A stretch of DNA of 64,000 nucleotides from an uncultured Clostridia bacterium (GCA_947589595.1 CANQBV010000001.1:810-64809), one strand, 5' to 3'. Shown: positions 5,051-37,648, counted from the first letter of the stretch. Notes: generated by a model not told the origin, from the sequence alone. Made by a program: numbers and translations.

Positions 5051-6475
5051 TTACTCTTTATCCGCCGTTTTTTTAGTGGTTTTTTTTGCGGCGGGCTTTT
5101 TCGCAGCGGTTTCTTTCTTGGTTGCGGTTTCTTTCTTTTCGGCAGGAGCCTTTTTCGCGGGGGCTTTTTTGGCTGCGGGCTTTTTCTCTTCCGCCTTTTC
5201 GGTGATTTCGGCGCTGGACTTCAAAAGCTCAACCGCTTTGCGGGCGGCGACGTCTTTTTGAATCAGTTCACGCGCAATGAATTCTTTGGCCTTTTCCGGC
5301 TCGATCTGATAGGCTTCGGAAACTCGCTTGTACTCGGCTTCGATTTCCTCGTCGCTGATTTCGAATTTTTCTTCTTTTGCGATTACTTCCAGCGCCAACT
5401 GCGCCTTGACCTGCTTTTCAGCCTGCGGCTTGAATTCTTCTTTCATTTTCGGAAGCGTCATGCCGGTGTACTGCAGGTACGTTTCCATCGAAAGCCCCTG
5501 CTGAGCCAGACGGTTTTCGTAGTCGCGCAGCATATTGTCGCACTCAGTGTCGAACATACATTCGGGAATATCGCCTTCAATGTTTTCGATCAGCGCGTTC
5601 AGAAGCTGTTCTTCCACCTGGTGCTCGGCGTCTTCTTCGTTTCTCTTTTCGATTTTTGCCCGGATATCTTTTTTGTATTCATCCAGCGTGTCAAATTCGG
5701 AAACGTCCTTGGCAAATTCATCGTCCAGCGCGGGAAGCTCGATATGTTCAATGCCGTTCAGTGCTACTTTGAAAACCGCTTCCTTCCCCTTGAGCTCTTC
5801 CGCGTGGTAGTTTTCGGGGAAGGTCACGGTTACGTCGAACGCATCGCCGATTTTGTGACCGACGATTTGTTCTTCAAAACCGGGAATAAACTGGCCGGAA
5901 CCAAGGCGCAGGTGATGTCCCTCGTCTTTTCCGCCCTGGAAAGGTTCGCTGCCGATGAAGCCTTCGTAATCGATCACGGCAACGTCGTCCATCGCGGCGG
6001 CGCGATCGGTTACTTCAATGGTGCGGGAATTTCTTTCCTGCACACGGGCAAGCTCGGCTTTTACTTCTTCCGCAGTAACCTTCTTCACGGTCTTTTCGGC
6101 TTTCAGTCCTTTGTAGGCTTTCAGCTTCAAATTGGGCTTGGTGTAGTAGGTCGCGGTGAGCGCCACGCCGTTTTCATCGATATCGCCCAGATCCAGCTCC
6201 GGCTGGCTGACCGCTTCAATACCGGCCTCCTGCACCGCTTCCTCCAATACGCCGGGAAGCAGCGCGTTCAGCGCATCTTCGTAGAACACGCCCTTGCCGT
6301 ACATTTTTTCAATGATCGGCTTCGGCGCTTTGCCCTTACGGAAGCCGGGAATGGTGATTTTCCCGACCTGCTTTTTGTATACCTTCATCACTTCGGCGTC
6401 AAAGACGTCCTTGGGGATGGTGATCTCCAGAACCGCCTTGTTCTTTTCTTCGGTTTTTACTTGTTTCAAGCTCAT
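5051..6475 (-). CDS. tig: trigger factor (peptidyl-prolyl isomerase) with a Lys/Ala/Glu-rich C-terminal tail
   Basis: 474 aa. N-terminal ribosome-binding motif GFRKGKAP and a central FKBP-like region; synteny with clpP-clpX; RBS AGGAGA upstream of the ATG at 6475. Confidence 0.95.
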   Translation of the reverse strand: MSLKQVKTEEKNKAVLEITIPKDVFDAEVMKVYKKQVGKITIPGFRKGKAPKPIIEKMYGKGVFYEDALNALLPGVLEEAVQEAGIEAVSQPELDLGDIDENGVALTATYYTKPNLKLKAYKGLKAEKTVKKVTAEEVKAELARVQERNSRTIEVTDRAAAMDDVAVIDYEGFIGSEPFQGGKDEGHHLRLGSGQFIPGFEEQIVGHKIGDAFDVTVTFPENYHAEELKGKEAVFKVALNGIEHIELPALDDEFAKDVSEFDTLDEYKKDIRAKIEKRNEEDAEHQVEEQLLNALIENIEGDIPECMFDTECDNMLRDYENRLAQQGLSMETYLQYTGMTLPKMKEEFKPQAEKQVKAQLALEVIAKEEKFEISDEEIEAEYKRVSEAYQIEPEKAKEFIARELIQKDVAARKAVELLKSSAEITEKAEEKKPAAKKAPAKKAPAEKKETATKKETAAKKPAAKKTTKKTADKE

Positions 6476-6674
6476 TTTTTTAATCTCCTGAAAGACTTAA
6501 TAGATATTGATAGTTCTTATCCTAACAATTATATCTGTCCCGTTTTATTTTGTCAAGACTTCCCGCCCGAAAAAGAAAAGGGGCGCCGATTCAACGCCCA
6601 ATAATATCATTATATACCAAAACGCAGATTTGTGCAAGTAGAAAAATTTCCTGAAATTTTGTGCAAAATGTGAA

Positions 6675-6703
6675 TTTACAAAAAAGATAACATGTGCTAA
6701 GAT
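6675..6703 (+). promoter_or_regulatory. candidate sigma-70-type promoter for the intergenic transcript
   Basis: TTTACA (6675-6680), 17-nt spacer, TAAGAT (6698-6703), with TG at 6695-6696 (extended -10). Confidence 0.4.
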
Positions 6704-6709
6704 AAAGAC

Positions 6710-6996
6710 ACAAAGAAGAGGGCAAACAAAAAAGGAAGAGCAAGGAAGCGCTTCCGCCAATCCAAATAGGAGGTACGGTCCCAAAAAAAGTGTACAGTGA
6801 CCCGAAAGCTCGGAGGAACTAAGATTCCCAAAAATCAAAGAAAGGGTAAGGTACAGTCCTAAGGAAAGGTTACAGTGACCCGAAAGTTCGGAGAAATGAA
6901 GGCCTGAGGACTCCGCAGAAAGAAGAGGTACGGTCCCATGAACAGTGAACAGCAGAAATAACCCCGATCCGGAAAAAGGATCGGGGTTATTTTTTT
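6710..6996 (+). ncRNA. candidate ncRNA or protein-binding leader: purine-rich ~290-nt unit made of three degenerate ~78-nt repeats and ending in a strong terminator
   Basis: The upstream gene (tig) is on the opposite strand, so a + strand terminator at 6960-6996 implies a transcript starting inside this spacer. TAC(G/A)GT cores at 6774, 6793, 6852, 6871, 6929 (plus AACAGT at 6941). GTGACCCGAAAG(C/T)TCGGAG occurs twice (6796-6814, 6874-6892). There is no credible ORF on the + strand. Confidence 0.4.
6960..6996 (+). terminator. rho-independent terminator
   Basis: 11-bp stem AACCCCGATCC (6960-6970) / GGATCGGGGTT (6978-6988) with loop GGAAAAA, followed by ATTTTTTT. Confidence 0.85.
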
Positions 6997-7010
6997 CGGG
7001 GAAATTCCCC

Positions 7011-7039
7011 TTTACACGCGGCTCTTTTTCGGTTACAAT
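7011..7039 (+). promoter_or_regulatory. candidate promoter of the nitroreductase gene
   Basis: TTTACA (7011-7016), 17-nt spacer, TACAAT (7034-7039); lies 33 nt upstream of the ATG at 7072. Confidence 0.45.
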
Positions 7040-7071
7040 AGGGGTAGAAAAATGAGAAAGGAAGAAAGGAA

Positions 7072-7608
7072 ATGACCTACGAAGCCTTTTTGCAGCTTGC
7101 CGAAACGCGCCATTCCTGCCGGGAATTTACCGGGGAAGCGATCGAAGAAGCTGAGATTGAAAAAATATTGGCCGCTGCCCGGCTGACGCCTTCGGCGTGC
7201 AACAGCCAGCCCTGGCGGATCGCCGTGGTGACAGAGCCGGAGAAAAAAGAAAAGGTCGCGCTTGCCCTGCAGGACGACGGGATGAACCCGTATGTGGCAA
7301 AGGCGGGGGCGTTTTTGTGCCTGTATCCGAACGGCGCCGCGATGAAAAAGCGCGACAATCCCAAACACCCGGACGATCATTTTGTAAAATACGACGTCGG
7401 CGAGCTCTGCGCCTACATCACGCTGGCGGCCGAAACGCTCGGCGTTGCCAGTCTTATTGTGGGCTGGGTGAATCCGCAGAAAGTCAATGAGGCTGTTGGC
7501 TATGAGGGCGAATACACCTGCGACCTGGTGATCGCGCTGGGCAAAAGCGCCGAGGCTAAGCTCCCCCGCAAGATCCGCAAGCCCATGGACGAGATCGCCT
7601 TTTCATAA
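7072..7608 (+). CDS. nitroreductase-family oxidoreductase
   Basis: 178 aa. N-terminal RHSCREFTGEAIEE..IL.AARLTPSACNSQPWR is the typical nitroreductase-fold signature. Confidence 0.85.
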   Translation: MTYEAFLQLAETRHSCREFTGEAIEEAEIEKILAAARLTPSACNSQPWRIAVVTEPEKKEKVALALQDDGMNPYVAKAGAFLCLYPNGAAMKKRDNPKHPDDHFVKYDVGELCAYITLAAETLGVASLIVGWVNPQKVNEAVGYEGEYTCDLVIALGKSAEAKLPRKIRKPMDEIAFS

Positions 7609-7774: not shown

Positions 7775-9490
7775 CTACGCTCGCAAAAGCCGGAGCTTTT
7801 GACTAAGAGAAAGGAGTTTTTCGCCCTTGGGCAGCATGAGAATCTCTTCCTTTTCAATTCCTTTGATCGCAAAGATCAAAAGCACATACACCACCGCCGC
7901 CAACAGAATTGCCAGGATCGTGGCGGGTTTTTCCCCCACACGGGAGGAAAGGAGCCAAAACGAAAGAGCGGCGGTAACACCGCAGCCGGCGGCAGCCAAA
8001 AGCGGCTTTAAAAGCACCTTGCGAATCGAAAAGACGTAGTGCGTATGCTTGGCAAGAAACGTCATATTGAAGAAAAACATGACCGCATAACAAAGCAGCG
8101 TGGAAATGGGAATCCCGAAAGCGCCGATCGCCGGGATCCCGATCAGCACCCACGAGGAGACGAGCTTTGTGAAAACGCCGCAGCAGGTGGAAAAAATACT
8201 TTTACGCTCAAAGCCATAACCCTGCAGCATGGCGCCCGAAACCGAGATCAGCCCCGAAAACAAAATCGCCGTCGCCAGTATGGACAGCATGGGCGCGGCA
8301 ATTTCGTTGGAGGTCACAGCGATCCCGCGGGCGTCGGTATAAAGCGTTTCGTTGGTGGAAAAAAGCAGCCGGATGATCGGCCCGGAAAGAACGCTCAGCC
8401 CCACCGCTGCCGGCAGGCAAATGAGCGAAACGATCCGGAAGGTGAAATCCATGGTGCGGTGCAGATCCGCGCGATCCGCACGGCTTTTGGCGGCGCTGAT
8501 CGCCGGAATGATACTGATCGCAAAGGGATAGATCAACGTCGGCGGCATATTGAAAAGCGTGACCGCTTTCGCGGTATAAGCGCCGTAAATCGAAACCGCG
8601 GCGGTGTTTTCCTCCACGGGCGCCGCTACGGCGCGCAGCGAGAAGAGCATGCTTTGAATACTGGAAAAATCAATGTGCCGCCCCAGTTCGATTTCCTTCA
8701 TCCGGCGGACAGCTACCATGGAATCGATCACGCTGGTCAGCGAAAGTACGCTCGAAGCGATCGTGATCGGCACGGCAATGGCAATCAGCTCCCGTACCAC
8801 GTCGCGGGTACGGCGCTCGCTTTTCTCCTTTGCTTCCGGAATCTCCTCCCGGGCGGACAGCATTTTGGCAAAAGAAAGGTAAACGGCCGAAGCGATCACC
8901 CCAACGGTGATGCCGACCAGCACGAACGAAGCCACTTCCGCGGGCGCGCGCCCTTTCTTTGCCGCCCAGACCCCGAGCGTTAAGCCGACGCCGAGGTTTC
9001 CCAGGGCTTCGATTACCTGCGAGACGGCGGTGGGAACCATGTTCTGACTGCCTTGAAAATAACCGCGAATGCAGGAGGACAGGCAAATAAAAAATAAAAT
9101 CGGCGCGATTGTCTTGAAACAAAGCGCCAGCTCCGGTTCCTGCGGGATTGCGGCAATTTGTTGTGCCAAAAAATACAGCAAAAGGGAAGAAGCCAGCCCA
9201 ATGACAAGAAAAAGACCAAGGCTCGCCCGGAAGATCCGGCGCATTTCGCCCGCTTTTCCCTGCGCGCGGGCAGAGGCGATCATGCGGGAAATCGCGACCG
9301 GCAGCCCGGCGGTGGAGATCAGAAAAAGCATAGAGTACACACTGTAAGCGGAGGAATAGTAGCCCATGGCAGTATCGCCGATCACATTTGCCAGCGGAAT
9401 TTTAAACAGCGCTCCCACCACTTTCACAACAAGATTGGAAAGCATCAAAATGAAAGCGCCGTATACAAAACCCTGATTCTTTTTTGCCAT
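7775..9490 (-). CDS. MOP-superfamily flippase (MurJ/SpoVB-like polysaccharide or lipid II flippase)
   Basis: 571 aa, polytopic (about 14 hydrophobic segments). The N-terminus GAFILMLSNLVVKVVGALFKIPLANVIGDTAMGYYSSAY resembles MurJ/SpoVB-family proteins. Confidence 0.75.
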   Translation of the reverse strand: MAKKNQGFVYGAFILMLSNLVVKVVGALFKIPLANVIGDTAMGYYSSAYSVYSMLFLISTAGLPVAISRMIASARAQGKAGEMRRIFRASLGLFLVIGLASSLLLYFLAQQIAAIPQEPELALCFKTIAPILFFICLSSCIRGYFQGSQNMVPTAVSQVIEALGNLGVGLTLGVWAAKKGRAPAEVASFVLVGITVGVIASAVYLSFAKMLSAREEIPEAKEKSERRTRDVVRELIAIAVPITIASSVLSLTSVIDSMVAVRRMKEIELGRHIDFSSIQSMLFSLRAVAAPVEENTAAVSIYGAYTAKAVTLFNMPPTLIYPFAISIIPAISAAKSRADRADLHRTMDFTFRIVSLICLPAAVGLSVLSGPIIRLLFSTNETLYTDARGIAVTSNEIAAPMLSILATAILFSGLISVSGAMLQGYGFERKSIFSTCCGVFTKLVSSWVLIGIPAIGAFGIPISTLLCYAVMFFFNMTFLAKHTHYVFSIRKVLLKPLLAAAGCGVTAALSFWLLSSRVGEKPATILAILLAAVVYVLLIFAIKGIEKEEILMLPKGEKLLSLSQKLRLLRA

Positions 9491-16492: not shown

Positions 16493-16568
16493 TGGAGCTA
16501 GTGATGTGACTTGAACACACGACCTGCTGATTACGAATCAGCTGCTCTACCGACTGAGCTACACTAGC
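16493..16568 (-). tRNA. tRNA-Thr (anticodon CGT), CCA encoded
   Basis: Reverse complement GCTAGTGTAGCTCAGTCGGTAGAGCAGCTGATTCGTAATCAGCAGGTCGTGTGTTCAAGTCACATCACTAGCTCCA folds by hand as a 76-nt cloverleaf: 7-bp acceptor stem, anticodon loop TTCGTAA, T-loop TTCAAGT. Confidence 0.9.
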
Positions 16569-37571: not shown

Positions 37572-37648
37572 TGGCCCACCCTAAGAGGCTCGAACTCCCA
37601 ACCTTCAGAATCGGAATCTGATGCTCTATCCAATTGCGCTAAGGGTGG
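37572..37648 (-). tRNA. tRNA-Arg (anticodon CCG), CCA encoded
   Basis: Reverse complement CCACCCTTAGCGCAATTGGATAGAGCATCAGATTCCGATTCTGAAGGTTGGGAGTTCGAGCCTCTTAGGGTGGGCCA gives a 77-nt cloverleaf with anticodon loop TTCCGAT. Caveats: one D-stem mismatch, two G-U pairs in the T-stem, and a C1-G72 pair. Confidence 0.8.

Follow-up and report, generated by a model that had tools for sequence, protein, structure and literature searches.

A conserved tandem array of Shine-Dalgarno-like units in gut and rumen Clostridia is probably a stand-alone RNA gene and may engage ribosomes

Organisation of the locus

The window, by which we mean the whole 64,000-nt stretch of DNA from an uncultured Clostridia bacterium analysed here, contains a spacer of 596 nt (6476-7071) between the trigger factor gene tig (5051-6475, minus strand), which borders it upstream, and a nitroreductase gene (7072-7608, plus strand, PF00881). 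A consensus scan places a sigma-70-type promoter on the plus strand of this spacer at 6675-6703, just as the initial annotation had described it. It comprises the -35 hexamer TTTACA (6675-6680), a 17-nt spacer closed by TG at 6695-6696 (extended -10) and the -10 hexamer TAAGAT (6698-6703), and transcription is predicted to start at ~6710. Further downstream, a hairpin of the form GGAAG...CUUCC (6733-6755, plus strand) is found in both the MFE and the centroid fold and precedes the sequence ...AAUCC-A-rich-GGAGG. The three repeat units first noticed at a distance of about 78 nt are confirmed, with starts at 6771, 6849 and 6926 and a period of 78 and then 77 nt. The array runs into an intrinsic terminator on the plus strand (6956-6999), whose strength had also been recognised; it has perfect 15-nt arms (6956-6970 and 6978-6992) and a T7 run at 6993-6999. 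A second promoter-like site ahead of the nitroreductase gene, likewise annotated before, is recovered by the consensus scan at 7011-7039.

All three units lie on the plus strand and begin with a Shine-Dalgarno (SD)-containing core. In internal unit 1 (6769-6846), the core GGAGGTACGGTCC at 6769-6781 is followed by a frame without start codon, AAA AAA AGT GTA CAG TGA (6783-6800), by the hairpin CCGA-AAGC-TCGG (6802-6813) and then by AGGAAC. Internal unit 2 (6847-6923) carries the weakened core TAAGGTACAGTCC at 6847-6859, the frame AAG GAA AGG TTA CAG TGA (6861-6878) and the hairpin CCGA-AAGT-TCGG (6880-6891). The terminal unit (6924-6961) has the core AGAGGTACGGTCC at 6924-6936 and leads into a mini-ORF of seven codons on the plus strand, ATG AAC AGT GAA CAG CAG AAA TAA (6938-6961), which encodes MNSEQQK and whose stop codon (6959-6961) falls within the 5' arm of the terminator. 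SD sequences are weakened in the window, to AAGG in unit 2 and GAGG in unit 3. The initial statement that the region holds no credible ORF is thus correct for proteins but misses this conserved mini-ORF behind the third SD. The third unit, which had been taken as degenerate, is in fact the best conserved unit of the family.

The A/G-rich character reported for about 250 nt of the body is borne out by a purine content of 68%, compared to 51% for the window, and this purine-rich body is predicted to be largely unstructured. With up to one mismatch, the 11-mer AGGTACGGTCC occurs three times in the spacer, compared to an expectation of 0.3 over the whole 64 kb, and the 22-mer ACAGTGACCCGAAAGYTCGGAG from units 1 and 2 occurs twice, with 0 expected. 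The units have diverged too far for Tandem Repeats Finder to detect the array. A sequence profile built on internal units matches unit 1 with E = 1.5e-15, unit 1 itself being included in the model, and finds no additional copy in the 64-kb window, L008 or L010.

The window holds several further features. A second conserved sigma-70-like promoter (6636-6572, minus strand) is arranged back-to-back with the element promoter; it reads TGCACA-16-TATAAT in the window and TTGACT-18-TAGAAT in relatives (L003, L013, L017, L019, L021, L032). A GC hairpin (6599-6581) and a U-run follow it directly, and this arrangement is kept with or without tig beyond. It may give rise to a tiny divergent RNA or act as a transcriptional insulator before the 12/12 tig promoter (6556-6528). 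The C-terminus of tig (5051-5200, minus strand) encodes a Lys/Ala/Glu-rich tail of ~50 residues (...KKPAAKKAPAKKAPAEKKETATKK...), and some trigger factor homologues are flagged PF07382. Two tRNA genes (16496-16568 and 37575-37648, both minus strand) are the only Rfam gathering-level hits in the window.

Conservation of the element in related species

Apart from one identical sequence, the trigger factor of the window is at most 77% identical to any database protein, and relatives that bear the element have a trigger factor ~72-77% identical to it. L001 and L002 are uninformative because they represent the same strain with an identical spacer. Conservation in close relatives had been set beforehand as a test of the initial proposal, and the element is found in at least 10 related species (family A), in which promoter, units and terminator keep their positions. 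Relatives at this level of trigger factor identity carry the element on the strand opposite tig, with five units in L003 and three in L006. In a scan of one genome per GTDB species, the 20-mer AGGTACGGTCCCRTGAAYAG from the terminal unit is found exactly in 11 GTDB species, all of them gut or rumen Clostridia MAGs. A promoter TTTACA-17-TAnnAT with TG lies at an equal position before the first unit in 10 family-A species. By eye, without a count of covariation, a hairpin of differing sequence precedes the first unit in relatives, for example GAAGGGUGAUCGCCCUUC or CGGGGCAAAAAGGACCCCG. In the terminator stem, 10 of 20 pairs show compensatory changes among 10 species.

The flanking genes are exchanged between species. 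Upstream lies tig or an operon for PNP, phosphopentomutase and pyrimidine-nucleoside phosphorylase, and downstream lies a nitroreductase gene, a cobalamin-riboswitch/DUF4430 operon, ppk, an asnA-like gene or a tRNA gene. L018 and L019 have a downstream operon that is convergent with the element, and in both a cobalamin riboswitch scored by Rfam precedes the DUF4430 operon. Among the loci compared, neither a toxin gene nor any other conserved partner gene is found near the element. Since its positions are conserved while flanking genes change, we conclude that the element is a stand-alone RNA gene and not a nitroreductase leader, in line with the self-contained transcription unit and candidate ncRNA or sRNA of the initial annotation. 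Judged from this comparison of sequences, it is very probable that the spacer holds a real, conserved RNA gene, and by the same comparison the element is an independently inherited gene. Scanning viral contigs with the tandem pattern gave 0 hits, which argues against a phage element. An over-specific two-block pattern likewise gave 0 hits in genome contigs.

The window differs from its relatives in some details. In the relatives L003, L006, L017 and L019 a DUF4430 operon follows the element. The window instead has the nitroreductase gene, which is preceded by a promoter-like site of its own; behind this gene, the murJ-like flippase gene (7775-9490, minus strand) is retained. Most family-A relatives (L003 at ~3350-3240 on the minus strand, L012, L017, L019, L021, L006) contain an extra structured module, CCGCUGUGCGGAAYGCC...GGG, between the last internal and the terminal unit, and also carry the motif AAUAUAGAU. 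The element of the window has neither this module nor a motif of the AAUAUAGAU type. There are 7 copies of ATATAGAT in the 15.6 kb around the elements, compared to 15 in the rest of the ~513 kb (both strands of the loci); L014, L029 and L034 also contain it.

Architecture of the repeat module

The repeat core (G/A)GAGGUAC(G/A)GUCC is composed of an SD sequence and a fixed 8-nt spacer. A short frame opens 1 nt past the core and is closed by an in-frame stop. In the two internal units of the window AAR replaces ATG, the stop is an in-frame TGA and a small hairpin follows. Internal units of family A conform to the pattern GGAGGUACGGUCC - (C/A) - AAR - 12 nt - UGA - CC-NN-loop-NN-GG - AG(U/G/A)AA, with AAR at the start position in 32 of 32 units. 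The CCGA-NNNN-TCGG hairpins pointed out initially are real and covary in relatives. As MAFFT places the 3' arm of the hairpin wrongly when it aligns the units, covariation was counted with an anchored script. Among the 32 family-A units, pair 3 is G:C in 24, A:U in 4 and C:G in 1, and in 5000 shuffles the number of paired units never came up to that observed. Pair 4 is A:U in 20, U:A in 2, G:C in 1 and G.U in 3 of these units; the G.U pairs make the plus strand the more likely RNA strand.

Terminal units follow the pattern GGAGGUACGGUCCC-(A/G)UG AAC AGY GAG GNN CAG ... stop. The peptide MNSE-x-Q is conserved in family A, and codons 2-4 vary at third positions only (10 species). Codon 1 lies 9 nt from GGAGG, within the 6-10 nt observed at real genes of the window that start with ATG. 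A small hairpin, instead of coding, could account for the conservation of AACAGUGAGG in the terminal unit; for this candidate hairpin there is one compensatory change but also one broken pair, and in the window it is weak.

In predicted folds, the SD G's often pair with the UCC of the same motif, which would partly mask the SD. In 26 of 41 family-A units, but in only 2 of 39 units of other sub-families, the spacer GGUC can pair with a downstream GACC. This pairing shows no covariation and is not supported.

A wider superfamily in gut and rumen Clostridia

When metagenomes were scanned for two cores in succession, 15 further loci were obtained, which differ in G+C content and flanking genes. 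Arrays of 2-6 units occur in Oscillospiraceae and Lachnospiraceae. By their flanking proteins, L025 and L036 are placed in Butyrivibrio spp., L027 in Pseudobutyrivibrio, L035 in Lachnospiraceae and L015 in Oscillospiraceae. Most of the further arrays consist of a strong promoter, 2-6 units and a terminator. Across 87 units from ~25 loci only GGAGGTACgGTCC + n + A.g is common. All of the arrays thus have in common the core and the position of the first codon, and the remainder of a unit is specific to the sub-family.

Frame statistics were calculated on 40 de-replicated unit clusters. A stop within five codons is present in 30 of the 40 clusters in the frame that opens 1 nt after the core, and in 9 and 13 of 40 in the other two frames (P ~6e-10). 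Codon 1 is ATG, GTG or TTG in 16 of 40 clusters, compared to ~5% by chance, and mostly AAG, AAA, ACA or CCA in the others. Several arrays contain units in minigene form, that is an SD, a canonical start, 1-6 codons and a stop, and some are made up solely of minigenes of 2-3 codons. The encoded peptides are MF, MY and MR in L022, MKT, VKT, MGM and MER in L034, where four of five units fit this form, MNR, twice, in L015, and MYSD and MG in L030, whose units lie within a tRNA array. In the window only the terminal unit takes the minigene form. Terminal units nearly always have a canonical start and 6-10 codons, and at 15 of 16 loci, which represent at least six sub-families, their stop starts between -12 and +1 nt from the first base of the terminator stem.

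Some members lie close to tRNA genes. In L030 (2407-2786, minus strand), the two units (MYSD*, MG*) are placed amid 13 tRNA genes, and a promoter or terminator of their own is not evident. They directly follow a tRNA-like gene whose anticodon loop has 8 nt and to which ARAGORN gives no assignment. In L023, L033, L035, L027 and L028 a tRNA-Gly(GCC) or tRNA-Leu(CAG) gene follows on the same strand 170-600 nt downstream. For the Lachnospiraceae-type members, this may indicate co-location with genes for stable RNAs. A different variation is seen in the Lachnospiraceae-like array L034 (7900-7995, plus strand), where an exact anti-SD replaces the spacer of the terminal unit, AAGGAGG-CAU-CCUCCA-AUG, so that a 5-bp hairpin can sequester its SD completely. 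The variant is a hint that self-pairing of GGA and UCC, as predicted for the standard motif, may be functional.

Relation to described RNA families

With Rfam 15 the spacer gives no covariance-model match at gathering score, in agreement with the initial view that it belongs to no known family. At E <= 10 only terminator-driven noise is obtained, the best being Thr_leader with 29.8 bits compared to a gathering score of 55, and CsrB, RsmX, RsmY and RsmZ give no match even at this threshold. No match covers the repeat units in 16 related loci or, at E <= 1, in 7 more (23 in total). The 11-mer motif is absent from the ~8 million full texts searched, and literature on ribosome sponge or decoy RNAs, minigenes and Lachnospiraceae RNA motifs contains no equivalent RNA among the works found. 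The family is sizeable and apparently undescribed in the RNA databases and literature searched.

Individual classes were compared with the element one by one. A protein-mediated attenuation leader of TRAP/PyrR/HutP-like logic, as suggested initially, is not supported: the longest run of (G/U)AG triplets at 2-3-nt spacing is 0, and the gene downstream varies between species and is convergent in L018 and L019. The initial annotation also described GGA motifs as frequent and considered protein sequestration through them. GGA occurs 8 times, with 7.6 expected from base composition, so that neither this proposal nor a CsrA sponge of the CsrB/RsmZ type is supported. The second GGA-containing site of each unit (CGGAG) lies half within a stem, and a regular expression for the CsrA-like N-terminal signature found no match in sequences that cover a small part of each genome. 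A type III toxin-antitoxin system was rejected as well, since the flanking ORFs differ (nitroreductase, DUF4430, ppk, tRNA genes and others) and no toxin endoribonuclease lies downstream.

Two classes share features with the element. As in leader-peptide attenuators, an SD-led short ORF overlaps the terminator; the folds contain no alternative antiterminator pairing and the downstream operons are inconsistent. As in STAB-SD elements, units 1 and 2 combine AAA or AAG at the start position with complementarity to a generic Firmicutes 16S tail. By eye, a K-turn, T-box-like pairing with a tRNA 3' end, resemblance to SRP RNA domain IV, a preQ1-like fold and a CRISPR-like array do not fit, and Rfam gives no support for any of them.

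Discussion

The conserved unit of the family is an SD sequence with a fixed spacer and a short frame, and this combination suggests the ribosome, more than a CsrA-type protein, as the partner. Our preferred reading, which we regard as plausible rather than probable, is that the element encodes a ribosome-engaging RNA that engages, titrates or reports on free ribosomes. A stand-alone RNA of ~290 nt would be transcribed from the sigma-A-type promoter, with its start at ~6710 and its end at ~6999. In each module, the SD (GGAGG) and the near-invariant spacer UACRGUCC would place a defined codon at the position of a start codon, with a stop a few codons on. The internal modules, with AAR in place of AUG, would hold the 30S subunit through the SD without productive initiation, in the manner of STAB-SD, yet in tandem and in trans. 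A start-less SD of the STAB-SD type, which is complementary to the 16S 3' end, binds the 30S subunit without being translated and blocks RNase J1 (PMC4113751). The spacer may add contacts to the 16S 3' tail. The last module would be a true minigene of seven codons. A ribosome at the stop of this mini-ORF would have to open the terminator, or 3'-protective, hairpin, which would couple translation to termination or to the lifetime of the RNA. The neighbouring nitroreductase gene would not be regulated by the RNA.

A more far-reaching formulation is possible, and we consider it rather doubtful: the family may represent a new class of clostridial sRNA in which tandem modules with extended SD, of parking or minigene type, hold, titrate or protect free 30S subunits, while the terminal mini-ORF couples termination or stability to translation capacity. 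RNase R starts the degradation of orphan 30S subunits at the 16S 3' tail (PMC10901742). It is speculative that the element forms a duplex with this tail on idle 30S subunits. Pairing of the motif with the tail GGAUCACCUCC, a generic 16S tail and not that of the carriers, is calculated at -19.4 kcal/mol with a 2-nt bulge, compared to -13.6 kcal/mol for the SD alone. With 7.5% of random spacers reaching an equal value, we do not take this extended pairing as significant.

Two properties do not follow from ribosome engagement. Ordinary RBS function does not explain the invariant spacer UACRGUCC. Internal units with AAR cannot initiate, and the model thus leaves their conserved in-frame TGA unexplained unless it is a relic or a fail-safe. 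Alternatively, the spacer might serve to close a small GGA/UCC hairpin on the SD itself. These unexplained features, the spacer and the stops behind non-start codons, leave room for a sponge that acts on a protein or by base pairing.

Of these, a protein sponge is the stronger competitor, although we consider it rather unlikely. Here the invariant 11-13-mer would bind an RNA-binding protein that represses mRNAs at their RBSs, and the array would titrate this protein in the manner of CsrB/RsmZ and CrcZ. Multivalent, near-invariant sites under one strong promoter without a conserved neighbour agree with this, as does the overlap of the motif with the SD, which is also known from CsrA sites. The motif could possibly be presented as a GGA/UCC hairpin with the loop GGUACRG: folding predicts pairing within the motif, and its central 2-4 nt vary in sequence and length while the flanks are fixed, as would be expected for stem-loop recognition. 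However, GGA is not enriched, and the CsrB/RsmX/RsmY/RsmZ models remain without match at E <= 10. The protein sponge also fails to account for starts 9 nt past GGAGG in 40% of the clusters, for frame-specific stops and for the stop-in-terminator geometry. Isolated motifs are absent from real gene starts in ~250 kb of carrier DNA, and a candidate protein is not encoded nearby.

The frame organisation and the terminal mini-ORF are equally left unexplained if the motif is a base-pairing site for another RNA with the sequence GGACYGUACCUCC, for example an anti-SD-like sRNA, with the array as a sponge or multi-seed regulator. We regard this as improbable, even though the invariance of 13 nt in two orders of Clostridia is what a seed or target interaction typically shows and the purine-rich body is largely unstructured. 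A complementary sequence is found neither in the window nor in the other loci examined.

With a similarly low probability, the element could be a small-protein mRNA whose sole function is the peptide of 6-10 residues (MNSEQQK here), with upstream units that are decayed duplicates and provide a long 5' UTR, stand-by sites or stabilisation. The terminal ORF starts with ATG, GTG or TTG, MNSE-x-Q is kept in family A through third-position changes, and distant members encode comparable hydrophilic peptides from different codons (MNTDESKK, MDTQNQMK, MDNEQFEKA, MDQSE). Yet the peptides are very short and unlike each other across sub-families (MGSIFRGGIS, MANEFK, MKLQEIS), and decayed duplicates would have lost the invariant 13-mer, the fixed frame length and the covarying hairpin, which are all kept in many species. 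A cis-acting leader or attenuator of the nitroreductase gene, to which the position upstream of and co-directional with 7072-7608 and a short ORF ending in the terminator, as in ribosome-mediated attenuation, might point, is very improbable given a downstream gene that is not conserved, owns a promoter-like site and is convergent in L018 and L019, and given folds without an alternative antiterminator.

If ribosome engagement is correct, an abundant regulatory RNA directed at the translation machinery is present in major Clostridia of gut and rumen. An RNA decoy for the ribosome was not found in the literature searched. Under more conservative readings the element would, to our knowledge, be the first multi-site sponge RNA in Clostridia and would define a 13-nt recognition element with conservation in two orders. 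As members of the family occur in cultured strains, such as Butyrivibrio sp. AC2005 and WCD3002 or Pseudobutyrivibrio ruminis, the idea can be tested directly. The family also illustrates a limit of structure-based discovery, as purine-rich, weakly structured RNAs built from repeats can escape such pipelines.

Comparison with known systems

Leader-peptide attenuators, with pyrBI-type coupling or with uORF-terminator motifs like ilvB (PMC11109978), share with the element a short ORF that is sterically incompatible with an adjacent terminator; the element differs in having no conserved downstream gene, antiterminator alternative or regulatory codon run. Antitoxin RNAs of the type III ToxI kind are similarly built from a promoter, tandem RNA repeats and a terminator. 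ToxI repeats are pseudoknots of 34-36 nt, whereas the units of the element measure 52-82 nt and are RBS-like, and no toxin gene follows the array.

The sponges CsrB/RsmZ and CrcZ resemble the element as stand-alone, strongly promoted sRNAs with repeated RBS-like motifs in a copy number that varies between species. In contrast to CsrB/RsmZ, the recognition element here is 13 nt plus a reading frame and not A(N)GGA in hairpin loops, with no GGA enrichment and no Rfam match. We know of no Csr sponge RNA in Clostridia.

The lambda bar minigenes, the erythromycin-resistance pentapeptide minigenes and E. coli start-stop sites have the same succession of a strong SD, a start, 1-6 codons and a stop as units in L022, L034 and L015. 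The minigenes known so far occur as single sites, as fragments selected in experiments or within mRNAs, and not as conserved tandem arrays with an invariant spacer. In the window, initiation is possible at the last unit only. For alternative start sites and start-stops, we follow the terms used in bioRxiv 10.1101/520783.

The closest parallel to the internal units of the window, which are start-less SDs, are the STAB-SD elements of Bacillus thuringiensis cry3A and other SD stabilisers of Firmicutes (PMC4113751). STAB-SD acts in cis as a single copy at the 5' end of a long mRNA. In the family described here, a short stand-alone RNA contains 2-6 units in tandem, and each has an invariant 8-nt spacer, a short frame of fixed length and an in-frame stop.
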